From Antedon mediterranea (taxonomy: Eukaryota; Animalia; Echinodermata): a stretch of DNA of 64,000 nucleotides. Made by a program: the position numbers and the translations under genes. Below the pieces are notes generated by a model. That model saw nothing but the letters and a program-made list of their open reading frames with translations. It did not search any database and was not told where the DNA came from. Positions 1 to 29,700 of the stretch are shown in pieces (positions within the stretch are counted from its first letter, which is position 1; every line of letters begins with the position of its first letter). Location: contig NC_092677.1 of NCBI RefSeq assembly GCF_964355755.1, forward strand, positions 9,508,101 through 9,572,100, read 5' to 3'.

Positions 1-550
1 TACAACGTAAAGAATATAGAGTTGGTCGCGGAAGGGAGGGAGGAAGATGGAGAGGGCAGCGGGTACCACAACCTATGAACTCATGTAGCATTTACTAACT
101 TGTTCATAATCACCCTGTGTATTATCATGATTCATCATCATCGTCGTCAGTATTCTTAACATCATAATCATCGGCTTCTTCTAATGATAATGTCATCATC
201 ATAATTATGCCACAATACAACATTATTCAAAATCAAATTGTTATACATTCCCTATAATTAATTTTATCTCAATATCCGGCACTAAGTTACTAACATACGG
301 TAAGCTTTAATTCTGAAATTAGAGTTGTTATTGCAATGAAAGAATCTCTTAACATTTTCTTTAATTTAATTACATCTTTTAATTTAAAAATCATGTTATC
401 AAATCAGGAAACCTATATTGATTGGGAAGTTACGTGTCGTTATGGTTATCCGTAACGACATACTACTAATTTTCAATATAAACACTGCTTAGTTTTCCTG
501 GTAACGAGACGCTTCAAACATATTCTGGGAAAAGCACGCAGTGAACTTGC

Positions 551-557
551 TATAAAA
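551..557 (+). promoter_or_regulatory. TATA box upstream of IRF-like gene 1
   Basis: TATAAAA about 50 nt upstream of ATG 606. Confidence 0.45.
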
Positions 558-605
558 CACCGGTTTGACAAAAGGCGGCCTTAGCTTATATGCAACCCGT
601 GAACG

Positions 606-2758
606 ATGACGCATCATAGTGGAGGTGTGGATCAATTTGGAAACTTCACCCACAATATCGGATATCCAACATTCGGGAATAATTTACCTGACCTCCCATT
701 GGATTTTCTTAATTCTTCGTTCGCCGCCGGATTGGAGGGGGACACTGCATCGGGGGCTGTGGACTGGATATCGAAGATGTACGCGGGAACGACCCCCGAA
801 ACAACATTTGTCACAGGTTCAACTGATTCCTGGGTGGTGACACAACCAGGGATGACACAGAGTGATGTAGCACCATCGAATCTGGTGTTAGGTTCGATGA
901 TGCCCACGACGATGCATTGTGGTGAGATTGCATCTACATCAGCATTGACATGTGAATGGGTTGAAAATAGGATTGGCACGTCGATTATCGATGGGAACAA
1001 GAAAATGGTTCCCAATAGGATACAGGGTGAGGCAGCATCATCAAACTCTTGGGACATAGGCTTCCCGATAGATTCTATGCCTAAGATGATGATGCGAGGA
1101 GATTTCCCACTATCTACCGGATTTGACGAAGGGACATCACATGTGAAGGTACCACAAATTGCCACATCAACCACGTGCGGATTAATTGATGACGGTGTAG
1201 GTCTAATGGATGGAGAGTATGAGGAGGAGGAGGAGGAGGAAGACGACGACGATGATGACGTCATCGCTATATCTAATCCCGTAGCACAACGTAGGCCGGT
1301 GCGTAAAACAATACGAGAAGGTAAATTGTATTTTTTTAAATAAAATTGAATGTTTGCTTTTACTACTATTGATTTATATTAATTATTGACTATTATTTAT
1401 GAGCAGGGCGGATCTTGGGAGGGATAAGGGAAAAGTTACTACCGTTAATCCAGGGAAGAGTGATATTAATTAATTAAACTATTCACTGGGTGGTCAGGAA
1501 GATGATGGTGATGATGAGGATGATATTAATGGCGTTACTATGTCAGGTGATAAATATGAAGATGGTGATAACTAATTTGAGATTTCGTATATGCACTGAG
1601 AATGACAATGACTTCGAAATAGCGTTACGTAAAGTTAATTGGTCAGATATCTAACCATAGCCATCAGCGCAAGCTCAAGGAGTATGAACGCCAGGGCGAT
1701 GGCGGTCGTGGGTTTTAGTGGCACCCAAGAATTACTTATTAGAATTACATTCTAATGTACTTAATTCGCATAAATTAAAATAGATCAGTAAGGCAAACAT
1801 TTGATGTCAACGACAATATAAACATTTTCTTACATAGCTTTACCATCAGAACTGAAGATAACTCTAAAATACCGCAAAAAGGAAGTGAAGTGTGTCGACG
1901 TAGATATCAGCAACGGGTTTCGTGTTGGCTATGGCGTCGTTCTAGATACCAGCAACGTGTTGACGTTTCCCACTGTGTGCGTTCCTAACATCCAGAACGA
2001 GGCCGATAGATATGAAAAAGAAGCATCAATGAAGGAATATAAGTTGAGAAAAACCGTACTTGAAAACCTCGAGAACGGGTATGTATGTATAATGTATGTT
2101 TTAGCGTCAAATTACGCAAATTGTAAATATACCGTTCGCAACTAAATGAAAGGCGCCAATGGATCAAGGGCCTAACTAATACCAACCTAATTATAATTTA
2201 CAAAATTACTAAACATTTTCAATGCTTAGAAGATTGTCCTTTTAACAAGTAATTTGTCAGGAAAGATTATGATGTAAGTCTTTTTAATTCCACAGCGTTG
2301 AGTTTAGTATTTCGAACGGAATAATCTACGCAACTCGTCGATGCCGCGCCAAAGTATTCTGCTTCAGTACTCAACAGCACAACGGACAAGATCCAGTAAA
2401 ACTGCAACAAGGGGTACCGCTCAAAATATTCGACTACAATTCCTTCGATGACACCCTCAGGGAATTTTATTTAAATCAAATTGGCGCCAATTCTATTGCA
2501 ACATCATTCCTAAAACCAAAGATCTTTTTCAGTTTCGCACAGGGATGGAAACCTATGCATGATCGGGATTATGTTTTAAGACGTTTGGGAGATTTGGTGC
2601 AACCAACTTCTTTAAATGACTGCCTTGTAACCATGGAGATTGTACCTCTACGCGCTGTGGATTTTATCATGGGGTTACCCGAAAGTCGTGACGTAGCGGA
2701 GTCGATAACCATGAGCTTAAAACAAGATTATCTTCAAATATCTACTTCACTAAACTAA
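606..2758 (+). CDS. IRF-like protein 1: acidic/disordered N-terminus plus IRF association domain (IAD), no DNA-binding domain seen; ~472 aa
   Basis: Exons 606-1320, 1838-2078 and 2296-2758 join in frame at GT-AG sites (phases 1 and 2). Spliced product: ...ALPSELKITLKYRKKEV...GFRVGYG...VLENLENGVEFSISNGIIYATRRCRAKVF...PVKL...KIFDY...KIFFSFAQGW...VPLRA...DYLQISTSLN*. This follows the IRF IAD motif order (L.I.l.YR, GcRl.Y, L..l.rGv.l, YA.RlC..rvy, P.kL, kiFD, I.l.FG..w, vP..A). In-frame TGA at 600-602 and TATAAAA at 551-557 upstream. Confidence 0.85.
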
Positions 2759-2794
2759 GTATGTTTTGTGTAATGCCAAATGCATGTCATGCTT

Positions 2795-2975
2795 AGCTAT
2801 TTACCCGGGCAATTAGTTTCATGGGTACAGTTATCGCTAACCTTGGTGGGAAAAAATTAGCTATTTACCCGGGTAATTGGTTAATTAGCTATTTACCCGA
2901 GTAATTGGTTAATTAGCTATTTACCCGGGTAATTGGTTTTATGGGTACAGAATTATCGCTAATTTTGTTGGGAAA
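2795..2975. repeat. Short tandem/duplicated repeat (AGCTATTTACCCGGGTAATTGGTT core) just 3' of gene 1
   Basis: Four copies of AGCTATTTACCCG(G/A)G..AATT; the ATGGGTACAG..TTATCGCTAA..GGGAAAAA segment occurs twice. Confidence 0.75.
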
Positions 2976-3349
2976 AATCTCACGACACGACACAAAATAC
3001 TATTACTAATATAGTATAGAGCTTTACTTCTGCTGCGCATGATTTCAATGTGGTCGGCGTTGCGATAGCTCCGTTAGTCTATAACAGTCTTCTTTATACT
3101 ACTATAGGAGGAATCCTCCTGCTATAGGAGGTATAAGGGTTAGTGAGCAAATGGACGAAATATTGTATTCGAGAATCTGTACGCAAACGCGAGGCATCGT
3201 TCGGTCACCAGAAACAATTATTCGTCAATAATGCAATTCTGAGTCGTAATTGACACAATTTATAGGGTTTTCAGAATATTTTTCTTGCCAGTAAAAATAT
3301 TAATATTTTTTTAGTACGTTATTAAATACCATACGTTTATTACATTGTC

Positions 3350-3471
3350 TTGGTTCCCACAAAGGAGACAACGCAGGACATAGACCCAGCGCAAGCGAGT
3401 TGACCAATCACAAGCGACAGTTCGCATTAATCCATCGCTTACTTCCGATACGTCTCTAGTGGGAACCAAGC
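3350..3471. mobile_element. MITE, family A (TIR CTTGGTTCCCAC...GTGGGAACCAAG)
   Basis: Terminal inverted repeats plus an internal ACGCAA/TTGACCAATCACAAGCGA core shared with the copy at 49152-49331 and with degenerate copies near 3990-4110, 10700-10800, 14345-14480, 14730-14810 and 51620-51690. Confidence 0.7.
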
Positions 3472-4320
3472 ATTATAGATAGTTAATATAAAGAATATCA
3501 TAATTGTTAATATAAATGTATATCAGCAGCTGAATTTATGTTTTTTACGTTAGTTAGTCTATTTAATTACCGTTATACTAAATATTTAATTTATTCCGGT
3601 TTGTATTATATTCTATTTATAAAATTGCTATCATTACTAAAACATTCCATTGACAAAAAAATTGTTGTTTTTTTTTACAATTATGACGTATTATTTGCAA
3701 TGCTTACTGTATGCAAACAGGCCTTTCATAACATGGGTATTTTGTGGTCTTTGGTTTTGGCCTATTAGAGGAACCATTGTATTGTGTTCATCCTTCCAAC
3801 GGAGGAAGTGATTATAAATGGAGTTGTCTTTAATGTGACAAATATGATGCCTACTGAATAGAAAGAACACGTTACAGTAACCATATACAGTAGACTATTT
3901 TGTATTATTATTATTGATTAATATATTGACAATTAAATGCACATGATCGATAAGTAGGCTTTCATTTGTGTTCCTAACGATATTAAGCTTAGTTTCCGGT
4001 GGTCACTAGAACGCAACGCGACGACATACGCGCGCGCAACGCAAGTGATTCAGAAGCGAAAAATATCTAATTGTCTCTTGTAATTGGTCAAATAACTTGC
4101 GGTTGCTAAGTACGTCCCAGTGTTTTAACACTGGGACGTACTTATAATAATTATAATATAATTATTAATATATTTTCCTTTCTTTACATAGCGAAATGTC
4201 TTAATTCGACTGTGCCGTGTCCTTAATACAGTAAAACCTCCACACATTATATTACATATTTTTAAAATAGCATACAGATGTTATGCTGTTAAGTAGTTGG
4301 CCAATGATAGATACATAATG

Positions 4321-4343
4321 TGACTCACACCGCGGGAATTTCC
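4321..4343 (+). promoter_or_regulatory. Adjacent AP-1 (TGACTCA) and NF-kB (GGGAATTTCC) consensus sites upstream of IRF-like gene 2
   Basis: TGACTCA at 4321-4327 and GGGAATTTCC at 4334-4343; a candidate non-coding first-exon donor (AG|GTAAAA) lies at 4601. Confidence 0.5.
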
Positions 4344-5094
4344 ATAAATCTATTTTTGAAAACAACATCGGCATTTATTGCAATATCCTGTATCGTTTTA
4401 ATACACGTTGCGTAAACACAACCATTCATCGGCACAAATTGATAAATGTATTGAATCGTGGGTTTTACAATCATTCTGGCGCACAATCCAGAACCAACAA
4501 CACACTAAACTGGGCATCGCTCAAGTAGGCATACATTGTACTCATTCGGCTCATTAGAACAAGACTAGATTGGGAGAAACTTGGCTGAATAATTAGTTAA
4601 GGTAAAACTGCTTGATTATCTTCAGTATTTGAATGCACAGAGAAGATGCACAATAATAATACGGTAGGCATCATAGTAGGCTATCAACCACCTCTGCTAT
4701 CCGCCATTGCGTGGGCGAGTTGCATTTAATTCTCTTTACCAGTTGGAAAACAAACTAATTAAGCACCGGTGAACTAGCCTATAGGCCTATATACAAATAG
4801 AGCTTCTGGTGGGTACGGTATATCGTCACCCACCTTTTAACCCCGGTTCGTGTGGTGACCACCCTCTCCCAATCCCCTTCTATCTTCTAATGAGGAAAAG
4901 CTGAACTTAGGTTAAACCTAATTATTCCAATCAATTGTGTTGTGGTCCAAGTATACAAAATCAAATAACATAACCAGTATCTAAATTTAACACAGGCACC
5001 TTGATGTTGTAATTTCGTCTTAAGAAAGTCACTACATAAAAATGATCTACCTTTGTTGACTGTCACAGATTCGATCAGAGGTAAACCATCCATC

Positions 5095-7216
5095 ATGGCA
5101 GAAAGAAATGATGACCACCAAACAAACCCCATCGTTACTGTTCAGACTAAAAATGGCCCGTTAGAGGTGAATACTGGACCATCACCAAAAGGTAGACACA
5201 TTTAACTTTTCATCACACATCAATTTTGCATTGTTGATTGCAGGATCAATAGAACTGGGAAATTGAAAACGGTATAATAAAAACCTTTCTACACCGCCAT
5301 AACAAGATGTAGGGGCTGTGTATTTGCCCGGGTCATACAGTACTACTCGACATTGAAAACAGCGTAAAATCTGTCCCGGGCCTAGCACCCGGGTAAGGAT
5401 GCGTAATGTATTCAGCGCTAAGCCATCAAATGAAATAGGTCATTAGTAATGAAGATTGGTAATATAAACTTTGTTTTCTATAGAGTACGAGATGAGAATC
5501 AAGGTTCGCTATCGGTCTGACGTTGCTTTGGATAAACGTATCGATATCCAAAAGGGTTGTTGTATTTATTATGGTGAACATTCATGTGAAAAGAGACCAG
5601 AGAGAATGCTTGTACCGCTTCCAGATGAGGAGAGTATTGAACGACAGGAAACCAGACAAGAAGTCAAACAATTGACAAAAGACATATTGGGGTTTTTGGC
5701 AAACGGGTAAGCTGTTGATAAAAAAAAATACATTACAAACCCATTTGAAGGTCGGGGAAGAAGCTAAAAATCCACCTATTCTAAAAGGGCCCCGCCTCAT
5801 AAGTAGGCCTACAGAAATGTTGCTAATAGTCTGTTTTATTATATTGTTGTTTTTGTTATATTTACGTGTTTAATGCAATCATTTGTATGGAAATAAGCTA
5901 ATAAGCTTTTTGGGCTATCCTGGAAAATCTTTATAGGCCTAAATGTAGGTCTATTATTTGTAATGTCAGTAATTTAATTATCACTTTCTATGTATTTTTA
6001 TGATTTTCCTAATAAATTTAAATCAAATCAAATACTGTACTGGCACCCGATTCTCCTGGGTTATCGGAGCTCCAGCGTACTTTTGAATTATAACTTTTGG
6101 CGCCACCCACAGCTATTATCTACCCTAACATTTTAAAGCAGTTGCTAGTATTTTTAAATTATGTGTGTGTTTTTTTACAGTCTGGTTTTAGAATACGGAC
6201 AGGATCGCTGTATATACGCGAGACGTCGTTGTCGCTCCAGGATTTGGTACTACAGCTCCCAACAAACCCCTGGACAAGATCCATTAGAGCTGAAGAGTGA
6301 CACAAATACAAAAATATTCGATTACGGCTATTTTTATAAGAATTTGTCTGATTGGTTCACAAACTACATGAAGGGAATACGAACAACATTAATTCGCCCC
6401 AAAATATGTTTTTCATTTGGCCAATCATGGCAGCCTTACCATAATCATCATGGAAGAGGCCCAGAGAGGCCCCAGCCAACAGCCATAGACGCCTGCGGGA
6501 TGTCGATGTACGCGGTACCATTAAACGCGCGTGACGCTATTCTTTCAATCGAGGAAGGACAGGATTGTTCAGAGACGTTGACGATGGGACTGAACAGTGG
6601 ACACCTGTTTATATCAAATGAGGAACGAGAAGAAATCTGTCAAGTGACAGAAGCATATAAAGTAGCCCATCAGCAACGACAGCAACAACAGTTACAGCAG
6701 CAACAACAGCAACAGTTACAGCAGCAGCAGCAACAACAGTTACAGCAGCAGCAACGACAACAACAGTTACAGCAGCAGCAACGACAACAACAGTTACAGC
6801 AGCAGCAACAACAACAGTTACAGCAACAGCAACGACAACAACAGTTACAGCAGCAGCAGCAACAACAACAGTTACAGCAGCAGCAGCAACAACAACAACA
6901 GTTACAGCAGCAGCAGCAACAGTTACAGCAGCAGCAGCAACAACAACAGTTACAGCAGCAACAACAACAGTTACAGCAGCAACAGTTACAGCACCAACAA
7001 CAGTTACAGCAGCAGCAAGATCAACAATATCAGCAACAACAACACCAACAAGATCAACTACAGCAGCAGCAACAAGATGATAATGAATTTGAAATCGAAA
7101 TGCAAGTCGACACTGACGACGTATGGACAGAAGCCGATATAAATGCTGTGTTGTCGGTAGATAATATCTTCAACGCAACGTCGTTGCAAGAACTGACGAG
7201 ATTACAACAAGCATAG
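5095..7216 (+). CDS. IRF-like protein 2: 32-aa leader, IAD, HLFIS motif, polyQ tract and acidic tail; ~451 aa
   Basis: Exons 5095-5191, 5484-5706 and 6181-7216 join in frame with the same intron phases as gene 1. MAERND...PKEYEMRIKVRYRSD...KGCCIYYGE...ILGFLANGLVLEYGQDRCIYARRRCRSRIWY...PLELK...KIFDY...KICFSFGQSW...VPLNARDA...GHLFISNEERE...polyQ. Confidence 0.85.
6671..7075 (+). repeat. Coding CAG/CAA polyglutamine tract punctuated by TTA (Leu)
   Basis: Repeated CAGTTACAGCAGCAGCAACAACAA-type units in the last exon of gene 2. Confidence 0.95.
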
Positions 7217-9472
7217 TCAAATTGATTCCTATTGGAGCAAATTAGACGCGTTTAGGGCATGACATTCACACACAACTCTTCCGTTAAAGAAACACTCACA
7301 CTGATACAGTTTGGTAAAGTTTTAGCGTAAAGTAACATTTGGTTCACGATGCCAATTAATTACAGATGTGTCTGTATACTATATAGTATAAATATGGTAA
7401 TTAAAATAATTGATATATTTTATTGATAAATTGATGCAATTTCAAGAATTTGCAGCTGTTTTTTTTTTAAATTTAGATGTACCGATATAATTTTGTAGCG
7501 GGGTATATAGTACAATACAAATTAATTATTAACGATGTATATAGTATAATAGTAAAATATATTTCATGCAGCGCTGCACTCACGTATTTCGACACCATGA
7601 AGCGTGCGTGCAAAAGCGGTACTATTTTCATCAACGTTTGCACGCGCGCATCAACATTAGTGTGTCACTGCAAAAAAATAAAATTCTGACATTTGAAACT
7701 GTAAATAATATTTAGTAGCAATACTAGGCGAGCATAACGTAGGCCTATTTATTTAAAATGTTTGTCTCTGAAATAAAACCATTAAAAATATCAATAATAT
7801 AAAGTATAAAGTGTAAGTTATGAAATATATCGGTACGAATCAGTCGTTAAGATTGATTTTCGTAAAACAGAGTGATTAGTCATGGATTTCATTCGGCAAT
7901 GATTAACCTTTTACAGGTACCGTATTAGATTGTGCAGATATTGATTTAAACAAAAGTTGTTGTTATTTAGTTCACGTATATTGATATTGCTATACATAAT
8001 CATACGTAGATTAGTAACTAAATAAAATTAAATAAATATTTAAATACTTAATGTTGCTTATTCTGTTTCCTAGTGTTTATAATAGAAAATCTAACTCAGA
8101 TTACTGGAAATGTGGGTAACAGTGATGTCCCTCTCAATTAAAATATAAAGTACATTAACAAAAGATGTCAGCCAGATATAAAATGTAAAGCCTTTAGCAG
8201 CAAGCCTGTTTTATTTCGTCGTTTATGCAGAATTAATGAAAAAAACGATGGGCCGCCGCCGTTACTCTTTACTTAGGATTTCGTCTGAAACTTGACATAA
8301 GTTATAGAGGGCGGTTAATTTGAATAAAAGGATCATCACGAAATTGTAAACTCTAGATGGAGACAATCGGGTACAGTATATACAGTACAACTAAAATTAC
8401 GGTATCGTAAGCCTACTTTTTGACTAGTAAAGAGACTATATACCCTATAGGCCAATTGGAATCATGGACATTAAACGTGTCCGATCCCCGGTCCGATCGT
8501 AAATGAAAAATACAGGATGCCTACTGCAGAGAGTAGCACAATTGACAGGATTGATACCTTGTGCGAGACTTGACATTTTAAAAAGCCTAAAATTAATAAG
8601 GGGAGAGGTGGGGAGGGTTCTGAACCAGAGAATCTAATACTCCTAGTAATTTGTAATTGTTACTACGGTTTTTTCAAATAAAACATTCGTCTCAGGCCTG
8701 TAACAGTAATGTTGATATTTTTTTCAATTTGACACGCACGAGATCACAAAAATTGATAAATTTAGTATATACAAACGTGTCACAGTTCAATGGGTTTCAC
8801 ACAGGAAAATTAATAATTTTAATGATGACAATTTAGTATTTAATTTTGAATAGGAGGAACAAAAAACTATTAGCAAAGACAAAGAACACAACACTACTTA
8901 TATATCAAGTATACATTATTATCTGCAAAGTGGTAGGCCTACACGGAAGTTGACTATCTACTAAGCCAAATATATTGGCTAAGCCTATTCAAATTAAACA
9001 TAATATTAGGCTTATGTCAACACGATAGCATAATAATAATTCAATATTTCGACGCATTATCACCAACCAACATGATACCGGTATAGAGTTAAAAACGGTA
9101 CGTACTTTGAAAACATTTTACTATAATTTAATGTGAAGACTAATACTTATGAACCGTAAACGCTAGTCCTTCAATCTCTATGAATGCGAGATAGAATTTA
9201 GTAGCTAGCCAAAAAAAATATTATTTCCCTACACAGTAAGTAGCCTAGCAGCAGGCTTAGGAGAGCGGCCTAATGCAATGTGGTGGTAGGCCTAGACCAT
9301 ATTATCATTTCCATCCATATCCAAATCAATGTTTTGATCACCATGAACTCAACCCTTTCATTAAATAAAAATACTAAATAATAAGCTTATTATTATAACA
9401 AAAACATGATTATATTAATAATAATTGAATACGCTATACCGCCCACGACGCCCGGTCGCACAAATGACCTAA

Positions 9473-9482
9473 GGGACTTCCC
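9473..9482 (+). promoter_or_regulatory. NF-kB-like site upstream of IRF-like gene 3
   Basis: GGGACTTCCC fits GGGRNYYYCC, about 260 nt upstream of ATG 9735. Confidence 0.4.
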
Positions 9483-9734
9483 CCACCATTATTATACGTC
9501 ATAACATACAAACGTATCATGCTTTGGTAACTATTTATCATGTTAATAGGCCTATTTGTACACGTGCGTTAATTCGACCGATACTGTGGGCATTTCGTCG
9601 AACCATTTCTCCATATTGTAACCTACTATTTTAGGCCTACTCGCTCTCAGCTAAAGCCTATTGCATGAATTTTGAAAAAACAGTAAAATAGTATATTTAT
9701 TTTCTTTTTACAGTGCAAACTACAGAAACTTGTG

Positions 9735-11993
9735 ATGGCCGACCATTTTACAGAAGGTAGGCCTATATTACTTATTTGTTATATTTATGGCCCACGACAA
9801 TTCAATTAGTCTTACATTCATCTGTAGCCTATCATTGGTCAAGGGCTTTTTCGTTCAGTCTCCACCGCACTGACCAAAGCAAGCAGGACCAATACGTCTG
9901 AGGCATACTGTACTAGATGCAGGGACTGGAGTCAGTATAGTGATCTGATGGGATGGGATGGGACCCAAGCTGTATTTGTCTACAGCACCCGATGGCCTAT
10001 TGCTGAAATGCAACCGAATTTTAAAATCATTAGTAGGCCTACACAGCGATATGGAAATGCCATCACTGATCAAAGGCTTCTCTCGTCCTGCAGTGCCCAC
10101 CTTGAAAGGCCGGGCCACGTCTGAGGAAAATACTGTACTATGCGGCAGGGGCCGCCATAAGAGTCAGTAGTGCTGATCTGATGAACCCCAGCTCTATTTG
10201 CTACAGCACCCGATAATAGTGCTTAAATATAACATTTAGTACAGTGATATAAAATTCTCATGATTGTGAGTGCGCCATCTTTTAAACAAATTATACTAGG
10301 TAAAGTATATCAGGCAAACAAAATAGTTTCTCTTTTCTGTACACATCCGGGGTATTGGTGGTCGTCATGTGGTATTTAATTTTGAGGGAACCTCTAATGA
10401 ATTATCTGTTTATCTTAATACAACAGCTCAGGTCCAGATAAACCTTAAGTACCGATCAACAGAAATCAAAAGTCAGATATTGGACTGTTCCACTGGATGC
10501 TGCATCTATTGCCAAGAACATTCATGTGAGCATGAGCCGTCAAGGAAGTTGGTTGAGCTACCTTTGAGCAACGACGACGCCGGTCGAAAAGAGACTAAAC
10601 TTACAAATAGACTGCTCATCGGAATGAAGCACGGGTAAGATTCTAAGCACTGAATATAAATACAACATGAATCATAGAAACAAAACGCCATAAATGTCAT
10701 TCACACTCGTGTTCTTATGACACAACGCAATGACGAACGTGCAACGAAAGTCAATTGACCAATCGTGATTGACAGTTTGGATGAACCATCGCTCGTGTTA
10801 TGGTTAATTACTTGTACGTACAGTACTTGCGGTGCGTGAGAACCAAAATTTACACAATTCTTTTTTTTTTGTCTAGTCTTCTCTTAGAATATGTCGACGG
10901 GTGTCTGTATGCGAAACGACGATGCAGTACTGTCATCTACTATCACAGCTCACAATACCACATTAATCATGACCCTATAAAAATTGAAAAAGACCAGAGG
11001 GTCATAATCTTCGATTACCCTGCCTTCAAAAATCAATTCATTAGCTGGTATACCCTTAAACTCACAAAATCAGACATAGAACCTTTCAAGCGACACAAGA
11101 TTTTTTTCAGCTTTGGACAAAGATGGCAACCATATCTCGAAAAACACAAAGAGATGGGAGAAAGCAGACCTCAGCCTACTACGTTGGACTCCTGTTTAGT
11201 GTCAATGAGCCTCGTTCCACTGAATGCGAAAGAGATGGTCATGGACACAGAGGCAGGTCGAAACGGTTCCGAGACCATTTCGATGGGTCTGAACCAGAAC
11301 TTTTTTTTCTTTTCTTTAGAAGGATCATCGCAGGTGTGTTCTTCTCTTGACAGGATGGCACAGAATTGTCGAAAAAAAATTCAAGAACATGAACAAGCCA
11401 GACAATCGTCACAAGAACTCGAAGAAAACATGAGTGTGGATCAACAGAATCCTGCAATAGAATTCGATAATCTTTTAAGTGACATTCTGGGCCTACAAGA
11501 ATCGATCGAAACCCGACAAAATGATGTTATGCAACGGCAAGGTATAACACAAAATCCGCATTTTGATATCCCTCAGCAGTATCCAGTAGAACAGCAGATA
11601 ACACGACAGCAACGTATAGATCAGCTGCAGCGGGAGTTCGAGGAAATACAACAGAATTGTGCAAACCAGCAACTACCAATGTCAGAATTGGGCCAACAGA
11701 ACGTAGCACAATGTCAAGACCAATTAGGAACATTACAGCCACATAACCAGCAGGCATGCTTGGCTGCAGATCTGGGCCAGCATGTTCAGCATGAACCTAT
11801 GGAACTTAATCACCAACCAATGCAACTATGCCACATAGAGGAGCAAATAGCTACCGAGTCGGCTCCTGCGAACGGTGAAATTATATATTTTAATTGGGGT
11901 AATGGTACTGAACGTCAAGTTGGGTTAACGTCTGAAGAGTGGTTGAAGCTTGTATCGATTGTACAAAATGAAAATTTACTGGAAACAAATTAA
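9735..11993 (+). CDS. IRF-like protein 3: 7-aa leader, IAD and long Q-rich tail; ~448 aa
   Basis: Exons 9735-9756, 10427-10634 and 10877-11993 in frame: MADHFTEAQVQINLKYRSTEI...TGCCIYCQE...LLIGMKHGLLLEYVDGCLYAKRRCSTVIYY...PIKIEK...IIFDY...KIFFSFGQRW...VPLNAKE. Confidence 0.85.
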
Positions 11994-12589
11994 GTTAAGG
12001 TACCCTCTGGTGGTACATGTACTGATATCGCAGCTGATAACAAAATAGACAGTGCTTAATTGACCAACTATTTAATTCATAAATAGAAAGTAGGCCTACT
12101 TGTTGATTCAGATTGTTATGAACCAAGTTATCAAAAACAATGTAATAAGGTGAATAATGCCATAAATAAATACAAGTAACTATATTGTAGTAACTAGTTT
12201 TGTAGAGTACTGTACAACTTATTATCCACCTAAGTTACACATTACTTAATATAACTATTACACCACGACGACGCAGCTATTGGACTTACTGCTTCCAAGG
12301 TGCGACCACCATCATCACCATAATTAAAACACGGTACGTATTTTAAAATCATTTTACTACAGTATTTAACGTGATACTGTATGTACCGTAAACCTTTCCT
12401 CTATACATCATGTGAAGATATTTAGTAGGTCTATCAATATTAATTCATACACGGCCTCATTTCCTACACGGTAGCAGCAGGCTTAGGACAGCGGCCTAAT
12501 GCAATGTGGTGGTAGGCCTAGGCCATATTATCATCCATCAATTATCCAAAATAAATTTTCAGTCACCATGAATTCCACTCTTTTATTAA

Positions 12590-13112
12590 AGATGTATTGT
12601 CCCTTTGTCAAATTCAAAAAAAAAAAAAAAGGGGGTCATTTTGAAGTATCATAATAGTTATTAATTTTCACCAAAAATTAGTCGAAAAAAAAATCATTTA
12701 ACTGAAATACAGACGTTTTCTTGTTCAAAAAATAACTTTGACTTCCAGTCAAAGTTTTCTATCAAAACATATCTCATAATGCAACACGCGTGTTTGGATA
12801 CCTCTGTATGCATAACCATAAAACTTCCTCGCGATCTGTGTGAGAACACCTTCTCATCCGTGACGAGTTGTAAACAATCCTAATTAGCATCATGCATAAT
12901 GTACTCATGGTTTAAAATCTTTATTTACTTTCGCTCAGGACGATTATCCAGACAAAATGTAATCAAATTAATTTAGCTGTTGCGTAAAATTGTTGTTTTT
13001 GGTTCGAATATTCGATTTAAAGTGAATAACTTTAATATTACTTTGATATGGCCAATTTAAATTTAGAATATGTTGACCTTCATTTTTTTGTGTTTCAAGG
13101 GACAATACATCT
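12590..13112. mobile_element. Non-autonomous Kolobok-like DNA transposon (TTAA TSD)
   Basis: TTAA|AGATGTATTGTCCC ... GGGACAATACATCT|TTAA. The paralogous region upstream of gene 3 has the empty site (single TTAA at 9361-9364). A related right end lies near 31168-31182. Confidence 0.85.
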
Positions 13113-13748
13113 TTAAATAAAAATACTAACAAAAACATGATTACATTACGATTGAATACCGTACACTATACCGCCCACATCCGCCCGGTCGCACAATGAC
13201 AAGGAACTTGGAACCCCCACCATTAGTTATACATCATAACATAAATATAAACGTTTGTGATTGGTAACTATTTATCATGTTAATAAATACATAACAACGT
13301 ATTTATAACCTGCGTTAATTCCGATATTGTGTTAGGACGGGCATTTTGTCGAAACATTTCTCCATTTTTCAATTACAAAACTGTTAATATTGGTATGTAC
13401 TATAATATATTGCTGTAATATAAATAACCGTAGAGTAGGCCTACATCAAGGTAAGTTCTGAACCATAAAATCTATATTCCCCTAAAATCAACAGTAGGCC
13501 TAACTACTTTTAAAATAGAAAGCGTAGGCTACAAAAGACTGATTCCCGTAACGCGTCATTGAACCAATTGGACCTTCTCGACAGTTCTTACTCTCTACTA
13601 CATCGCCAATTGGACCTTCTCGACAGTTCTGGCTCTCTACATCATCACCAATTGCATTTTTCATTACTGCTGAAAATATAGGCCTACGGTAGATTTCAGT
13701 TTTTTTTCTCTCTTTATAGTGGTAATTACTGTACTACTGAAATTTAAG

Positions 13749-15348
13749 ATGCAATACCAGTTTACACAAGGTAAAGTAAAGGAAAGTCCCGTGTTTTTTT
13801 AGGAGCTCATTGTGTGGTAGGGCTAGTTCCTTTCCTTAGTATTTAGGTACTCATTTATAGAGTGCATGGGAGTTGAATCCGGGTCTTTCTGATTAACATT
13901 CAAGTGCCTATATCCACTAGACTACCGTACCGCAACTCTGCAAGGTACTGTATAGTCTTTACATAAAAACGCTCATAGTTGTGAGTGCGCCATCTTTGGT
14001 TTGGTAATCGACATTTATGGTGTTTAGTTTAATTGGAGGAAACCTCAAATGAATTATCTGTTTAATTATCTTAATACACCAGCTCAGGTCCAGATAAACC
14101 TTAAGTACCGATCAACAGAAATCAAAAGTCAGATATTGGACTGTTCCACTGGATGCTGCATCTATTGCCAAGAACATTCATGTGAGCATGCACCGTCAAG
14201 GTTGATAGTTGAGCTACCTTTGCGTAACGAGGATGAAGGTGGAATAGAAACTAAACTTACAAATAGACTGCTTATCGGAATGAAAAAAGGGTAACATTTT
14301 ATAAACCCAAAATGGATGATTACATAGAAATTGTACATTATTGCTGGGTTTCCATCGCAAAGGACGTACCTGTGCGCACCTCAAGCAATTTGACCATTCA
14401 CGACGTGATGAATCATACGAACCGTCGATTGTGATTGGTCAACTCACTTTCGTTGCGCTTACGTCCTTGCGTCCTAACTTAAGCGTGATATTCGAAATAC
14501 GAAAATTCTCCAAATAAAATGTTCATATTGAACATCTTACTACTACTCGTCACTATTATATTCAATCTATTACTAACAAATTGGATTTCATGACCTGAAC
14601 ATGGTGGCTATCAATACGTTTAATGAATCCATCTTCATTCACATTCTGGTTCCAACTATTACACCTACGTGCATTTAAGCCAAGGTGCGACGAAAGTTAA
14701 TAGACAGGATGAACCACCGTTCGTATTTTAAGTTTGGTTCCCACTAGGACGTAACGCAGTAAGTAATCATCCATCGTTTATGATTGGTCAAATTACGCCC
14801 TAGTGGAAATCAGTAATTACGTTCAATTACCTGCGGATAAGTACATTGAGTTTTACTGGAGACTTAAGTCTTATAGATTATTGACATGTATTCTTTTTTT
14901 CTACAGATTTCTCGTAGAATATGCTGCTGAAGGTTTGTATGCGAAGCGACGATGCGATACTCCAATCTACTATCACAGCTCACAATACCACATCAATCAT
15001 GATCCTATGAAAATTGAGAAAGACCAGTGGGTCAAAATCTTCGATTACCCTGCCTTCAAAAACCAATTCATTAGCTGGTATACCCGTAAACTCATAAAAT
15101 CAGACATAGAACCTTTCAAGCGACACAAGATTTTTTTCAGCTTTGGACAAAGATGGCAACCATATCTGGAAAAACACGAAGAGATGGGAGAAAACAGACC
15201 TCAGCCTACTGCGTTGGACTCCTGTTTAGTGTCAATGAGTCTCGTTCCACTGAATGCGAAAGAGATTGTCATGGCCACAGAGGCAGGTCGAAACTGTTCC
15301 GAGACCATTTCGATGGGTCTGAACCAGAACTTTTTGTCTTTTATTTAG
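13749..15348 (+). CDS. IRF-like protein 4: recent duplicate of gene 3, IAD only, truncated by a frameshift (possible pseudogene); ~223 aa
   Basis: Exons 13749-13770, 14083-14290 and 14907-15348 are near-identical to gene 3. A 1-nt deletion after LNQN gives FLSFI*. Decayed tail homology with further indels continues to ~15527. Confidence 0.75.
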
Positions 15349-18300
15349 AAGGATCATCGCAGGTGTGTTCTTCTCGACAGGATGGCACAGAATTGTCGAA
15401 GAAAAATTCAAGACCATGAACAAGCTAGGCAACCGTCACAAGAAAACATGATTCTGTAACAGAATAATCTTGACATTCTGGGCCTACAAGAACCGATCAA
15501 AACCCGACAAAATGATGTTATGCAACGATTGTTATGCAATTAAAAAATTCATAAAGTCGTTCGTTTCCTGTATGAGCGTACGTCGAGCGATACGTGTCTG
15601 TAAATTTCTAAGATTTGCAAATAAATTGCCGATTTTCACCTGAAAAATAAATACTATACCGAGTGAATGATCGGCGGTTCCACACAGAGCACGCGCATCT
15701 AACATAGGCCTACGGCAACAAATGTTGTCTTCCTTTAAATAGTCCACGTGTGTGAGGAGGGGGAAAAAAGTACGATCGGTAGCATGCTGCATGAGTGTTT
15801 TTTCCAGGCCAAATAGAGGTCCCCCCCCCCCCCCACAGTGACAGTGACCCAAATACTTGGTGTCCGAAACCGATTACGATTAATGTGTGTCAAACACTAT
15901 GTAATAATAGATGAAGAATAATAATAAATAAAATACAATTTACAATACAAAAACAATATACAGTGCTGTACGGCTAATTACGTAATATAGAAGAGACACG
16001 ACGATGACGCAATTATGGGACTGCTTCCTAGAGACCACATAGTAAAGGTGTGCCCCTACTGTATATTCACAAAGTTTGCAGACCACTCACTGCAATACTG
16101 TGGGCTTTTTGAGAAACAAATTGGTCTGTTATAGGCTTAAACATTAACAATCTTGTTATGATAAATTGGTCAAAAAGTCAAACGAATGATAAACGCATCC
16201 ACGGATTATTAACGCAGGTATAATTATTTATTAATGTTTTTGTGACGTTTCAGAAAAGGTTTCTCGTGTATGAAATCATAATAGATATACCAGTATATCA
16301 ACACAGAATCACTATATCATTCATTAGATGATTTACGCATGCGTGACATAAGGTTAATTACGAATCCCGTTGTCTGTCAACATACAGTATGACTGAATGG
16401 CTAAACAAAGCCTCAAATCGCTAACTAGGAACAACAGCCGTATAATTCTGTTTGTTAACCATAGCCTAGAGAATCACTGAGATAACAGAAATATGTTTTT
16501 ACACGGGGAACGATGATGACCCGAACCAAGGCATCGTAACAACACCACACCATCACCATCTACTGCAAGCCTACAGTAAGAATCGTGCGGTAAGTACGCA
16601 ATATCTTTGCTACTGTGTATTTGTGCATCATCTGAAATGTGGTCAAAATGTGTTTATGTATTATTAGATAATTCAATAAGGAAACATTACAACTGAGATA
16701 AAGCAATGAAGTGGTCCATTGAGGTACCTAGAAGCATAGGAATTAGTTTAGGTCCTCTATTATGGGTGAGGTGAGTGACCCATTGAGGTATCCATCATGA
16801 TCCATCTCTTATGTTACGTAATGTTGAATATTATCTAGGACAGTAGTTAATATTTTTCAAAGAAAGTTTGTGGGTCGCTGATTTCAACAGAAGTAAACTC
16901 GAGGTTCCTGGTTCGATTAAGATGAGTATCAAATAAACAGTTTAAGTTATACAATCTAGTATAGGCGTGTCTGTGTATAGGCCTATATTGTAGGATCCTA
17001 AGGTCTTTGTTCCGTCAGTGCTGATTGCCTGCGGCATCAACATATGCACAATTCCTGTTGTGCTATTCAGCAGAATGCACATTAAATTGATTATGATTAG
17101 TGGTAATGCATTTAATCTACTATTTGGTCAAATTATAATACTGTATCTTCTGATAATTACGGGGATAATTAACGTATATTCAAGATAACACGCTTTGCTG
17201 CTATGTATATGGGGCATATTACGTATTACTGCACTAAGGTATTATTGTTATCATGGAGCTTATTCTTTACTCCATGTTGTTATGTGGCATACTACTACTA
17301 CTACTACTACTACTACTAATTTAGACTACGTACTAGTATACAGCATCGTGGTTCACTAATTTCTATTCGCCGTATTCTGATTATAGCATGACGGATACAT
17401 TTTTCTGGTATTATTATTTTTTTCTGTTTATTGTTGATACTTACCATAAATATGCAGCAGTCGCGAGCATGCATAAAACAATGTTGCTTTCTGAGAGGAT
17501 AATGGTCGGAGATGGACGCTTAATTACCTGCTGTTGTTGTTTCTACTTATGTAAAAATGCAACATTTAGGCCTAGGCCTAATGTTATTTAATTTCCTCGT
17601 TAACTGCAGTGATCGTTGATTACGAATCAGAGAGTACGACAATTAACTGACATTACAGAAAAAATCGATTTGATTGAGAGTGGATTAATTACACGTTTCG
17701 CTGATTTTTATTCATTGAAACACTGATTTCACGGTCATTGAAAAGTAGCAAGTTTAGACCTCTACAGGTCAGAAAAATGATCTGGAATCTTTAATTACGA
17801 TACCGTAATTTAACCGTAAGTATTGCGTCATGCAGCGAATGTGCGCGGGTCGCGTCATTTCATCAAAAATGTACCGTACACCATACGAAAATCCGCAAGA
17901 TCAACCAAAAACGGCACATTGTCCACTATAGTCTACTTTTTCTTGCTTGATTAAATTAAAAACAGTAACTCGGTTTTGGTAATTGGTTGTTATGACTTGT
18001 GTTAGCCTATAATATTATATTCTCTGATAGAACATCTCTATATTATTTTCCATAATTGTTTTATGCGTTCGTCACAATAACTTAAATACATTTGTGTATG
18101 ATTTGCATATTAATAGGCCTAATAATAATATATTTATACCCGCAATAAACTCATTATTTATAAAATTCATCATGCGTGCGGAAAATTAGGCCTACTCCGA
18201 TTCATACATCACCTCTCAGGGACTCTGGTATTGTTGTGGTTGCTACTACAATAAAACTATGACCATGAAGGTACACTGAAAAGCTCTTAGTTTGGCCAAG

Positions 18301-19740
18301 TTTCGTAATTATTTTTGGCTGAACACTTCAGGTTGAGGATATTGTTGTCAATAACAAAGTCCTTTTTGTGGTTGGTTTGTGAATTATGTGTGTTTATAAA
18401 ATGACGATATTGGCCTACAATGTTATCAAAATGAGCAGAATATTTCGTTAGTGTAGATAGCTAGTTCAAATATTGATAAATTACAATTTGGAAAGTAATT
18501 TGTTATCACGCCTTTTTTGTTTAAAATAATACCGTACTTTTTATAGGGAACCTTTGGAACCCAACACAGTGTTTTAATAGTGTTCCCTGAATAGGGATTT
18601 TCCGTGTTGTGTACAGTCTGTGGTTAAACATTGCCTCTCGTCACTGAATATGGTGTGTGTGTAATGCATAATAGTTCAATATGATATAAATCAAATATAA
18701 AATGCGTTATTAACATTGGGAGTGGACAACATATACGGGTAGGAAATAACCAATCCCCATATAATTCTATGATCCATAACCCACATATTAAATAATAAGA
18801 TATGTGACACACCCTTCACACAAGGCCCCTTCAGTCACTGAGCCATGTCTCCATTGACTGTAAGGATACACTCTCTCCATAAGCCGAAGGATTCGTCAAT
18901 ATTTTCGTTGTCTTGACAACGTATACTATGGAATGTGGGTTGGATTAAGCGCTGTGTAACGATTCAATAAGTTGGTGCTAAGTATTGTTATGTTACATAG
19001 TTCTCGTACATGCATTGTGCAGTACACTAAAGCTCGATCGTGTACATAGTAAAAATACAACTGTAATAAACAATTCGTATTGTTGCGTGCGTTGTGTTGC
19101 GGTTATCTCGCTAATCTATGGTTTATCTTCGATATATTCTTGGGATCTATTGTTTGATTATGGAAATATCGCTTTATGGTTTGAGATACGGTGCTGTAAG
19201 TAGTCTGTGATACTATACCTTTTCGAATGATTTCAATCGTGTGTTGGTTAGCTGCAGTACAAGCTAAGTGTTAACATATTATTCGCATTTCCCAAGTGAG
19301 TTAGAAGTTAGTACTACATACCTGGGGATTAACAGAATTGAATCCACAAACCAACCATAACAGGTAAGAATATCCTCGCATATAGTTCTGTGTCCAGTCG
19401 ATGTCTGTTAAAAAAGCCGATCTGGTTGCATTGTTGATGCAGCCTTTGTATTCATAGTAAGGAACTGGTCGAAAGGGACATCACATACATATTGTAATTC
19501 TGTTGTGTGTGTAAATAGGATTTTACCGTAAGTTATAGTGTCTTACATAGACTCTCAGTCCTAACCCTATACCAGCGAGTTCTCTTGAGATCTCAACACC
19601 TCCTCTCCTAGGATCTCCTATTGGTTTAGTTTGGATGTCAACTTACAGGATGATGATTGCGACCATACTTTTTACCCTCTTTACATCATAAAATTGCATT
19701 AATTAAATGACGTTTTCTCTATTTTAAAGATATCAGTAAC

Positions 19741-20987
19741 ATGGGATATGACGTTGATAGATTTGTTAGCAGTGTGAACGACGGCTTGTTGTGCTGTATT
19801 TGTCGAGACGTGCTGGAAGATCCTCTTCAATCTCCGTGTGAACACGCTTACTGCCGCTCTTGTATACAAGGTTGGCTGGTTCACGAGCAAGTTTGTCCAG
19901 AAGATCGTCAAAGTCTTCTCGAGTCACAACTAAAACCTTTATTTCGATACATGCGCAACGATCTTAATAATCTTCGCATCCGCTGTCTGAATCGCGACAA
20001 CGGCTGCGAGTTTACAACTGAACTCGAGAACCTCGCACGCCACGAGAGTGCGTGTGAATTCGGTACGCTCAATTGTCCGAATAAGAATTGTCCAGTTGTT
20101 ATGGAGCGACGAGAGCTTGATATTCACCTTGTGTCTTGTGAATACACAACGAAACAATGTCCGAAAGGTTGTGGTCTGACAATTCTAAGCTCTGATCACG
20201 ACTCCCATAATTGCGTAGGGGAGCTAAGGACGGAACTTGAACTATTAAGGTCAGAAATGATATGTAAACTGGAAGATCAACGTCATGAAAGCAAATTAAG
20301 ACTAGATTCACAACGAACTCATATGGTGCAGAAGATCAGTGGCATGCAACAAAATGTTGACGAACTTCGTGGTAAGTAGAAATCTTAGAATAAACACTAT
20401 CGGATGATTTATGGTTTGGAGAGCCCCGGGTGACCCGAGCTTCTGGTATCCCAACCCTTTTCAAAGTCCGAATAAAAAAGAGAAAAGAAAGCTAGGCAGG
20501 ACCAAGTCTTTGACATAAGGACTCCCGTCTATATCAACTTCCTAAATCGGCTCCTGAACATGATACGAAAGGTTAACAGAGTCCCGATCCTAAATGGCTA
20601 CCTGAATTCTAATCCATATCCATCTGCAGTTTCGAATTTCAAAAGAAGTCCAGGCCAAAATTATTGTGGAATGTGTACGGTGTCTGATGTGCTCATACAC
20701 CTACTACAGTAAGGGTACCAGAAGTCATAGACACCGTGTGTCTTCTTCAACAGCCCAATGCTTCAGACGCCGTTCTCTCATTTTCTTCCACAGGACAACT
20801 CTCTAATTTACAACACGAAGTCCGGTTGCTAAACGCTATGGAACGGAAACGCCGCCAAGACATGGAAAGGATGGAATTGGAAAAGAAAGAACTGATCGAG
20901 TTATTACAAGCCATTCGATTAGAAAATGAAACAGCAAAGAGTACATGTCGACAATGTAAAAGAAACGAACGAATCACGTCTATATAG
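19741..20987 (+). CDS. RING-finger E3 ubiquitin ligase, RNF41(NRDP1)/RNF151-like: RING, TRAF-type Zn fingers, coiled coil; ~274 aa
   Basis: Exons 19741-20371 and 20794-20987 (phase 1). MGYDVDRF...CCICRDVLEDPLQSPCEHAYCRSCIQGW...CPEDR resembles the RNF41 N-terminus (MGYDVTRF...CEHAFC...CPVDR). The C-terminal USP8-interacting domain is not seen; the protein ends ...RITSI*. Confidence 0.88.
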
Positions 20988-26785: not shown

Positions 26786-29700
26786 TCAGCGGGTGAATGA
26801 TCGTTGATGACGGTCTCGTCCTCCCTGTCGGTTGTATCCAGCTCGTGATCGCGGTGGAGGAAACCTGTATTTAAAATAAAAAACAAAATCTTTCAGAATC
26901 CAGGATTTAAATAATGATTTTTTCTAATGTTATACAAAACTTTTCAAATCTTTTTTCTTTCCTTCAAACAATACAATAAACAATATGCATTTGAGTAGAA
27001 TAAATGCAAAATAGCGGTTTATCTAAAAAAAAAATGACATACCTTCCGTGATCTGCTTTGCTCCCTTGTGTCGACCAGTGCGCTGGCCGAAAACCTCCTC
27101 TTCCTCTAGTGTTTGGTCTTCGCTGACTTGGGCCACCTCTACTTGGGCCTAAGCCACGCATACTACCTCTAGGCCCACCACGTATGTAAGGATTGTCTCG
27201 TCCTCTCCCTCCTGCTCTTGGTAGGGGCCTACTATCTTGCCTGCTATCAGGTCTGTGGAAAGACATAAATTATGTGTTTAATTATTATATAATGGTATTG
27301 TTCTTGGTCTTTAATTGGATAAGAAAGTTTATGAAATGCAAATCCTTATCAATCAAAAATACATCCTTACCTCCTATGAGGAAATCCCCTTCCTGGACCA
27401 GAAGAACCACGCCTTTCCCACTGACCACGCCCTGAACTCGGCCTTTGTGAACTGTCTGTAAAAAATAAATAATATAAAAACTACAATATTTTGTATATAC
27501 TACATTACAAAATATAATTGAGCAGTGTTTATTTGATAATAACTATTGTATATTATTTCCAATAATTGTATTATGTATTTGTGGAAAAGAAATTGTGGAG
27601 CATCAAATGTCATCTTTTACACTTACTTCTGTCACCCATTTCTCTTCTTCCGCTATAGCTACTCCCACTTGGTCCATTCCATGGACGACTGCCTTGAAAA
27701 CCGCCCCTAGACCCTCCCATAAATCCACGCCCATTTCTACCAGTAGGTGGTCCCTGCAATTGAATTAAATATTTTTTAATGCATACATTATTAATTTATT
27801 AATTTTTAATTGGTATTTTAACTAGAAATATAAATTGGAGCAAAGACTACCTTATTTGGTCTCTTGTGATCTGGCTCTTGCTCCATGGCAATAAAATCAT
27901 CAACATGCATAGAGGGCGGTCTGCTGGTGTTTTGAGGACGTTGTCTGAAAGTATCGTACGGCCTTCGTCCATAGGAATTACCACGTGTCATTCCTGTATT
28001 GAATTTATTTCAAATGCTTTAGTTTGTTTCTTTTAATTTTTACTTTACATAATGTAAAAAAATAATGATAGAGTAATATACAGAGAATAGAAAATGATTA
28101 TGTTTTACCATGAGATCTTTTGATAGCACCACCGGATTTATTCATACCGCCTGTTACCAGAGGAACTCGACGTCTAGATCTATAAAAAGAAAAAAGTGAA
28201 GATAACTACATTGAAAACGACTCAACAGTATAAAAAGTTATTTCGGATATTATTGATGAGATTGTCAAAACTGAAATAGATAAATTACCTTGTTGATTTT
28301 TTCTTTAATTTAATCGTGTCGGTGCTACCACGATCAAGCTCAGCTTTCAAATCAAACGTTGGGATACATGCAGCACGTAGTTCTTCTAAATCACAAGGCA
28401 CCTGAAATAAAGATAAAATAACTTTTATAATCCATATGTAGATTTGTGTTGTTTCTTTATATAACCTCAATGTATCATGATTGGTAAAAAGGCAGTTGTA
28501 GAATAACAACTTTTAGTTTTTTATTTGTTGTATGATTAGTTCATTTTGATCCCATTGGGACAGAGCGACAACACAGCGATTCAATTTTACTGGTTGTATG
28601 ATTAGTTCATTTTGATCCCATTGGGACAGGGCGACAACACAGCGATTCAATTTTACAGTTGTAGAATATAGTGATAAACAGCAAGGGGTTGAAATGGACC
28701 ACAACACCAAGGTAACTCCCTACTCTTTCCAAAAGATGTACTGGGTTCCTTTAAATGCACACAAGTGTAGGCTGTTTTAAGTAATTATCCAAGACTTGTT
28801 CTACGTCCAGAACTATGGTCAAGAAGTACCTTGGAACTGTGGTTTGCAGTTTCCCTCTCTAAACCGCTCGGCCACTTGATTTGATTATATTGTTACTCTA
28901 TTTCACCACTCAATTACTTACTAATTCAGGTTCAATCTCCCCTTCATCCATACCAGGTACTCCGATCCAATACGATGGGCTCCAGCGATCGTCATCGACA
29001 TCACCGACAACATACACAACACGCAAGTTCATCTGCTCGGTTAGACTCATTTGTGGAGGCAGTGTAATTTCACCAAGATCATTGCATTTCAACAGATCTT
29101 CAGTCTCTGTAAGGGTCTGTGATAGGGTAGCAATTGTCTCTAATAAACTTTCAAGAGTGAGGTCTTCCTTACAACAATCCTGTGTATAAGAAAAATCAGA
29201 AATGAAATAAATTAATTAAGAGCTCAGAAATATATAACATATATATAACATATATTATCACCATAATAGGACATATAAATAAGAAAAACTTTATTAAATA
29301 AAAAATGCTGTTGGTTGGAGTGTAGTCTGAATTGGGTTGTAGTATACATATACCACCTTGCAAATTGAACTCAGAATTGCTGGCAGTGGGCCTATTTCAA
29401 CTAATGCACAGGTGTATAGCATCAACCCTATGAAGGGCATCTTGTGCCAAAGAACACCCTGCAAAGCCTGTTTCTGGTATCCCACAAGCACATTAGTGCC
29501 TCACCCTGCTAGGGTGTAATACTGCCTCTGTCTCAGACCTTCCCAAGGGCCAAGGTAAGCAATAAATGCTCATTTGTAACCCCTATTGCAAGCATCCAAC
29601 CAACTTGTACTACACCCTCAACTATGATGCCAATATATATCACTGATTTCAAGAAATCTTTTTAAATTGGTGTTAAGTTTAACAGAACATTTTTTGGGTA

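Follow-up and report, generated by a model that had tools for sequence, protein, structure and literature searches.

A 64,000-nucleotide window of the Antedon mediterranea genome (NCBI RefSeq assembly GCF_964355755.1, contig NC_092677.1, positions 9,508,101 to 9,572,100, forward strand) carries a tandem array of four genes, g1 to g4, that encode the association domain (IAD) of interferon regulatory factors (IRFs) without the family's DNA-binding domain (DBD). Such an array had been claimed in an original prediction made from the letters alone. All coordinates below refer to the window. Spliced models with an open frame and GT-AG junctions were obtained for 4/4 genes, all on the + strand. The coding exons lie at 606-1320, 1838-2078 and 2296-2758 in g1 (472 amino acids, aa), at 5095-5191, 5484-5706 and 6181-7216 in g2 (451 aa), at 9735-9756, 10427-10634 and 10877-11993 in g3 (448 aa) and at 13749-13770, 14083-14290 and 14907-15348 in g4 (223 aa). 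In all four genes a phase 1 intron precedes the IAD and a phase 2 intron falls within a conserved Gly. The first coding exon encodes 238, 32, 7 and 7 aa in g1 to g4, respectively, and the stop-to-start distances between the genes are 2.3, 2.5 and 1.75 kb. These phases, lengths and gaps, like the TATA box and in-frame stop ahead of g1, had been described in the prediction and are all present in the sequence. The IADs of the paralogues share 33-45% identity, with 85% for the g3/g4 pair. The four proteins correspond to the A. mediterranea RefSeq entries XP_071959414 (g1), XP_071957863/4 (g2), XP_071958141 (g3) and XP_071959100 (g4, 223 aa), whose database names are automatic; Antedon is a crinoid.

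A TATA box (TATAAAA, 551-557, +) and an in-frame TGA just ahead of the start codon (600-602, +) were read in the sequence upstream of g1. The first exon of g1 (606..1320, +) encodes an acidic, low-complexity N-terminus of 238 aa that lacks a DBD and has no Pfam match. Residues 1-193 were predicted to be disordered, with a predicted local distance difference test score (pLDDT) mostly below 50 in the structure model. The N-half of the IAD is encoded by exon 2 (1838..2078, +), which by itself matches Pfam IRF-3 at E 0.003. Exon 3 (2296..2758, +) encodes the C-half, which ends in a pLxIS-like motif, YLQIS; the transcript extends to at least 3419. The first coding exon of g2 (5069..5191, +, ATG at 5095, 32 aa) was placed with the spliced model and a contig of the public run X1. 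It is followed by the IAD N-half exon (5484..5706, +; IRF-3 E 1.7e-5) and a last exon (6181..7216, +) with the IAD C-half, the pLxIS-like motif HLFIS, polyglutamine and an acidic end; the 3' end lies near 7921. The polyglutamine (about 6670-7080, +, about 135 residues) is closely interrupted by Leu and Arg in LQQQQ units, a pattern that resembles a coiled coil.

The first coding exons of g3 (9714..9756, +, ATG at 9735, 7 aa) and g4 (13720..13770, +, ATG at 13749, 7 aa) were each placed by the model and a splice joint. The g3 IAD N-half exon (10427..10634, +) is connected to the last exon (10877..11993, +) by an observed joint. This last exon encodes the IAD C-half, a degenerate pLxIS position (FFFFS), a Gln-rich tail and a conserved C-terminal motif shared with a second crinoid, Anneissia japonica. 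The IAD N-half exon of g4 (14083..14290, +) has its first 36 codons identical to g3. The last coding exon of g4 (14907..15348, +) holds the IAD C-half and no pLxIS-like motif, and comparison with g3 shows that it is shortened by a frameshift near 15330.

Sequence and fold comparisons support an IRF IAD rather than the MH2 domain of SMAD proteins. All four proteins passed the curated cut-off of Pfam IRF-3 (PF10401) with 67-81 bits (E 2.3e-18 for g1, 1.5e-22 for g2, 2.6e-22 for g3 and 1.1e-21 for g4). SMAD MH2 reached E 7e-7 at best and passed its cut-off in g1 only, with 30.1 bits versus 67 for IRF-3. When the Protein Data Bank (PDB) was searched with a profile of crinoid sequences, IRF4 and IRF5 were found at 3e-14 to 4e-11 and MAD at 0.01. 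The g4 structure model (pLDDT 88.7, alignment of 87 rows) gave IRF4, IRF5 and IRF3 as leading Foldseek matches (1.7e-13), then SMAD (9e-10); the sequence identities were 19-24% to IRF3/4/5 and 11-16% to SMADs. VIA placed the same model nearer IRF5 (Z 20.5, root mean square deviation 2.4, 183 aligned) than SMAD2 (Z 18.5), and the Atlas comparison agrees with the IAD assignment. The same IAD fold elements were seen in a model of g1 residues 241-450. The predicted derivation from IRFs, not SMADs, is borne out by these results. Weak matches of the tails to Pfam PAT1, YceG and CW_7 fell below cut-off and were disregarded.

The search for a DBD was confined to the 64-kb window. The tryptophan-repeat DBD family PF00605 was found in 0/100 Trp-containing + strand open reading frames (ORFs) of at least 24 aa (window 1-19700), in 0/5 whole proteins, and likewise not in g4. 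Our own profile, built from 32 DBDs and run without filters on the six-frame ORFs of the whole window (n=3470), scored 5.1 bits at best (E 5.1). As a control, the profile recovered 14/14 held-out crinoid DBD pieces of 20-40 aa (10-48 bits); at 15 aa 4/7 pieces exceeded 10 bits, and very small exons could escape. A tblastn search of the window with 33 DBDs gave nothing below E 0.2. With GT-AG frames in 4/4 genes, IRF-3 matches of E 1e-18 to 1e-22 and a null DBD search whose controls worked, it is confirmed that within the window g1-g4 encode an IAD without a DBD. The array genes are IRF-derived, but by the family-defining DBD they are not IRF transcription factors.

RNA evidence came from one public run of one study, X1, in the form of contigs. 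The RNA nature of X1 is our guess, and reliance on it rests on its GT-AG joints; contigs cannot show transcript starts or levels. Joints were observed at 9097→9714, 10634→10877, 13392→13720 and 13770→14907, while runs X2, X4 and X5 gave unspliced, DNA-like cover. Because of the joints 9097→9714 (depth 36.4) and 13392→13720 (depth 13), g3 and g4 are shown to begin at their own nearby non-coding exons, at 8980..9097 (+, left end approximate) and 13340..13392 (+, left end not fixed), respectively. Neither exon has a Met in frame. The reach of the g3 exon, about 100 nucleotides (nt), was estimated from bin depth, with an in-frame TAG at 9026-9028 if the contig reaches that far; in g4 the in-frame stops lie further upstream. 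g2 probably begins likewise, at a putative non-coding exon (4441..4601, +, left end not fixed) whose donor is present in the sequence with an in-frame TAA directly before it. This exon was placed from bin depth (26.0 expected, 26.5 seen). A 525-nt X1 contig with a single depth of 35.9 at 5111, 5482-5705 and 6222 joins the three coding exons of g2. In g1, an X1 contig starts at 585, past the TATA box and ahead of the in-frame stop, and there is no X1 cover in bin 223-444, a weak hint. A contig over 2295-3419 continues for another 85 letters, whose depth is consistent with exon 2 as their source. Exon 2 of g4 is skipped, out of frame, in the single g4 contig seen. Transcription of the array, as had been expected, is supported by the joints and the spliced g2 contig; the additional non-coding first exons of g3, g4 and probably g2 had been overlooked. 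A joint 9756→14083 was considered as a g3-g4 chimera and not accepted, the first 36 codons of both exons being identical.

These first exons bear on an arrangement in which g1-g4 are alternative IAD cassettes behind one shared DBD upstream of the window. All IAD exons open in phase 1, and in g2, g3 and g4 the ATG of the first coding exon is preceded by a splice acceptor and an open frame. A complete IRF appears to lie on the same scaffold as the DBD-less genes in both Anneissia and Acanthaster, and the searched DNA ends at the upstream edge of the window. However, g3 and g4 splice from nearby exons that cannot encode a DBD, g1 has its own TATA box and in-frame stop, RefSeq gives separate genes in both crinoids, and the N-termini are conserved between the two. 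We consider a shared DBD very unlikely.

g3 and g4 are a recent pair, with dS 0.16 and dN/dS 0.44 (33 versus 20 changes). Relative to g3, g4 has a 1-nt deletion near 15330, missed in the prediction, that leads to a stop at 15346-15348; further indels lie downstream and the C-terminal tail is lost. In the g3/g4 DNA alignment a decayed remnant of a g3-like tail, with several indels, follows the stop (15349..15527, +). g4 would be either a minimal decoy that has lost the tail or a pseudogene in the making. Of the claim of four genes, the four models are real, but g4 is shortened and may be decaying. The frameshift, a longer branch than that of g3 in the IAD tree (0.11 versus 0.045) and the skipped exon 2 would fit a view of the whole array as transcribed, functionless relics of partial duplications. 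Against it, the frames of g1-g3 are intact at 33-45% mutual identity, a second crinoid genus retains both the g1 and the g3 type, and the same build occurs in three other classes. For the array the relic view is highly improbable; for g4 alone it is perhaps a serious contender, at a little under even odds.

Relatives were sought among 1.84 billion representatives. Anneissia japonica has a g1-type gene, LOC117113843, and a g3-type gene, LOC117113824, both without a DBD. N-termini are kept between the two genera, and the first 30 aa of g1 resemble the N-terminus of its Anneissia orthologue. At the C-terminus of g3 (11900-11975) and of the Anneissia protein P0004, a 25-aa end motif (YFN-W/F-G ... 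EEWLK) is conserved behind a poorly conserved Gln-rich tail of about 200 aa, and is a candidate partner-binding site. The annotated isoforms X1/X2 of LOC117113824 (P0004, P0007, P0006) differ by many substitutions over the whole last exon, which suggests two tandem last-exon copies or two genes merged in the annotation. The best match outside the array was the complete Anneissia IRF LOC117113798 (153.6 bits). Its accession numbers neighbour those of the DBD-less pair, and it probably lies on the same scaffold. A fifth Antedon DBD-less protein, XP_071958914, lies outside the window, apparently on the same chromosome.

Among the 150 matches listed, 72 had a DBD and 78 did not, most of the 78 being short and possibly fragments. 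A DBD missing from a database entry is no proof alone, and 59/78 rows were left out because they were short, might be partial or had no long N-terminus (including g2, g4 and both Anneissia proteins). Two of the remaining 19 fell among DBD-bearing vertebrate-like rows and appear to be faulty models. Species names were assigned for 10 of the DBD-less rows. DBD-less models with long N-termini were found in the sea stars Acanthaster planci, Asterias amurensis, Asterias rubens (two) and Patiria miniata, the sea cucumber Holothuria leucospilota and the brittle star Amphiura filiformis, the 5' ends of these non-crinoid genes being taken as annotated; none of the named models came from a sea urchin. 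For Holothuria, assemblies of public runs yield proteins of 426 aa that cluster with the genome model. Four relatives (P0013, P0068, P0071 and P0080) have two or three IADs per protein, with or without a DBD; they could be genuine multi-IAD proteins or gene models in which a tandem array was fused.

In IAD trees, which contained no SMAD rows, the array grouped with the crinoid complete IRF (support 100/99 and 99/98; 92/72 in a smaller set). The 17 other DBD-less rows, including all the named non-crinoid ones, formed a weaker group (95/78; 86/85). A single origin of the echinoderm DBD-less rows was rejected with 24 rows, the fifth Antedon protein included (p 0.023), but not with 17 rows from which that protein and near-duplicates were removed (p 0.106); the groups for this test were named after the first tree was seen. 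The formal test is thus mixed, and the trees suggest two or more origins, or that the sequences were homogenised within crinoids. The claim of a lineage-specific family holds in part: the array groups with the crinoid complete IRF, but sea stars, a brittle star and a sea cucumber have DBD-less models as well. On these comparisons the array descends from an IRF gene, and it would have arisen when the 3' exons of the echinoderm IRF4-group gene were duplicated in tandem.

What the proteins do may be approached through the surfaces they keep. An innate-immune role as decoys, adaptors or tethered co-activators had been put forward in the prediction; both that role and the choice among the three are a matter of inference. 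Arginines in two motifs, Y-R and YA-x-R-x-C, are present in 4/4 array genes, and we take them to be the putative equivalents of IRF3 R211 and R285. According to PMC7672473, R285 of human IRF3 holds the phosphorylated serine in the pLxIS motifs of adaptors, and the dimer is locked by R211. The two arginines of all four proteins would likewise dock phosphorylated adaptors and lock a dimer. With a pLxIS-like acceptor, g1 and g2 could be phosphorylated and pair with a complete IRF to give dimers with one DBD; g3, whose acceptor is degenerate, and g4, which has none, could only occupy partners. IAD-only proteins would in this way displace the complete IRF from activating proteins or from IRF dimers. 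Because the docking and dimer surfaces appear to be kept and DNA binding is lost, competition with the complete IRF is the simplest explanation. By analogy we propose, at a probability of roughly 0.5, that g1-g4 are competitive partners that damp and tune the complete IRF, as separate genes. A precedent is human IRF-3a, whose DBD is missing in part and which inhibits IRF3 by forming a heterodimer with it (PMC8636596).

Sites matching an NF-kB consensus were found upstream of g2 (4334..4343, +), in g3 intron 1 (9473..9482, +) and in the intron after the first coding exon of g4 (13781..13790, -). Each is a weak hint; sites of this type near g2-g4 would make the array genes inducible feedback genes. 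The count of 3 in 16 kb compares with 0.6 in shuffles (P about 0.03, counted post hoc). ISRE-type (interferon-stimulated response element) sites were not enriched in the locus, with 3 in 16 kb versus 9 in 48 kb for the rest of the window.

Several points weigh against competition. A pure decoy needs no long acidic or Gln-rich region, yet every intact member (g1, g2 and g3) has a disordered region of this kind, which suits an activator. In acidity the region exceeds its counterparts in the five nearest complete IRFs (median -0.09 versus -0.04 to +0.03 per residue), although it does not differ significantly from all 56 complete IRFs (P 0.20). The vertebrate switch may not apply here, as the crinoid complete IRF has itself no clean pLxIS motif and the STINGs of many invertebrates appear to be without the pLxIS tail. 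The mapping of IRF3 residues is tentative, and the RNA contigs of a single study may leave room for rare long-range splice forms. The NF-kB-type count was made after the fact, and the remaining 48 kb of the window also has 4 such sites.

The disordered regions would suit the main rival, that g1-g4 are tethered co-activators. In this reading the IAD would attach to a partner already on DNA (the complete IRF or a STAT, ETS or bZIP protein) and the acidic or Gln-rich region would provide the activation surface or make it more diverse, so that DNA binding and activation are divided between two genes. Such regions are long in g1, g2, g3 and other echinoderm DBD-less models, acidic-hydrophobic 39-aa tiles occur in 10/22 DBD-less proteins versus 0/5 of the nearest complete IRFs, and solved structures of IRF3 show CBP bound to the IAD fold. 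However, tiles also occur in 15/56 complete IRFs (P 0.18) and, with charge no different, the regions may be inherited linker. The region is N-terminal in g1 but C-terminal in g2 and g3, and the DBD-less IRF isoforms described in the available text of PMC8636596 are inhibitory or neutral. Co-activation is possible but doubtful, and paralogues may act in opposite directions.

The IAD may also be viewed as a phosphopeptide-binding module of cytoplasmic adaptors or scaffolds that act independently of transcription, in kinase or adaptor clustering or in cell death. The nuclear-import signal of IRF9 sits in its DBD (PMC11841930, available text), and DBD loss may keep the proteins cytoplasmic. Transcription-independent roles of IRF8 and IRF3 are described in the available portions of PMC9381507 and PMC8066409, and the polyglutamine of g2 could drive assembly. 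Against this, a Pfam search found no additional folded signalling domain in any array member, and we regard a scaffold role as unlikely.

The array has parallels elsewhere. Herpesvirus vIRFs are likewise diverged IRF-like genes in a tandem cluster and interfere with the partners of host IRFs, as the array might; unlike the intron-containing host genes of the array, they are viral and retain a degenerate DBD-like domain. Smad7 and Drosophila Expansion are MH1-less SMAD relatives that act as stand-alone regulators without DNA binding. The array shares the SMAD/FHA-type fold with inhibitory Smad7 and Expansion (PDB 7cd1, 4r9p), but in sequence and fold it is nearer the IRF IAD than MH2, a parallel and not membership. 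IRF4-group IRFs (the IAD1-bearing IRF3-10, with PF00605 and PF10401; nearest LOC117113798) resemble the array in IAD sequence, fold and arginines, and g1 and g2 also in the C-terminal pLxIS-like motif. Unlike them, the array is tandem, lacks the tryptophan-repeat DBD, has short or acidic disordered N-termini and, in g2 and g3, Gln-rich tails. IRF-3a and other DBD-deficient IRF3 splice isoforms, as far as described in the available text of PMC8636596, also have an intact IAD with the DBD incomplete or missing, and the inhibitory route of IRF-3a, a heterodimer with the full factor, is the one proposed here. Those are isoforms of one gene, whereas the array consists of separate genes with their own promoters, at 33-45% identity and kept across genera.

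No published description of IAD-only echinoderm IRF genes was found; supplements and most subscription journals lay outside the search, so a prior mention is possible. A literature search on MH2-only SMADs returned no paper. In the available text of PMC2885996, two IRFs were counted in sea urchin by DBD profile, and genes of the present build would escape such a survey because it counted by DBD.

The next gene downstream of the array (19711-20987, +) encodes an E3 ligase with RING and TRAF/Sina-type zinc fingers (Pfam). Its start presumably resembles RNF41/NRDP1, which regulates MyD88 and TBK1 in mammals. Other neighboring genes lie at 26964-40514 (-), 46393-48783 (+) and 50350-62932 (-); one is BACK-Kelch (Pfam), and from their translations we take them to include a virilizer-like and a fucokinase-like gene. 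An 801-aa ORF at 52052-54457 (-), in the intron of another gene, looks by eye like a non-LTR (long terminal repeat) retrotransposon reverse transcriptase. Short dispersed repeats, covered very deeply by public runs, occur at 3350-3480, 4000-4100, 5880-6040, 10725-10814, 12690-13120 and 14380-14800, and are probably small mobile elements, some within array introns.

Taken more widely, the array may belong to a class of DBD-less IRFs spread across the echinoderm phylum and bred beside a complete IRF, probably more than once. One DNA-binding subunit would then serve diversifying, interchangeable regulatory subunits that act as brakes or boosters. This class would be the IRF counterpart of inhibitory and MH2-only SMADs, missed by DBD-based surveys; we hold this wider reading tentatively, with somewhat less confidence than the competitive role itself. 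Echinoderms are close relatives of chordates and lack interferons. If the role is as proposed, echinoderms would tune IRF output by dedicated partner genes, not splice forms. Among the paralogues there is a natural gradation, with the acceptor motif kept, degenerate or lost and the tail in front, behind or absent, and through it one may ask what purpose the IAD and its phospho-switch had before interferon signalling arose.

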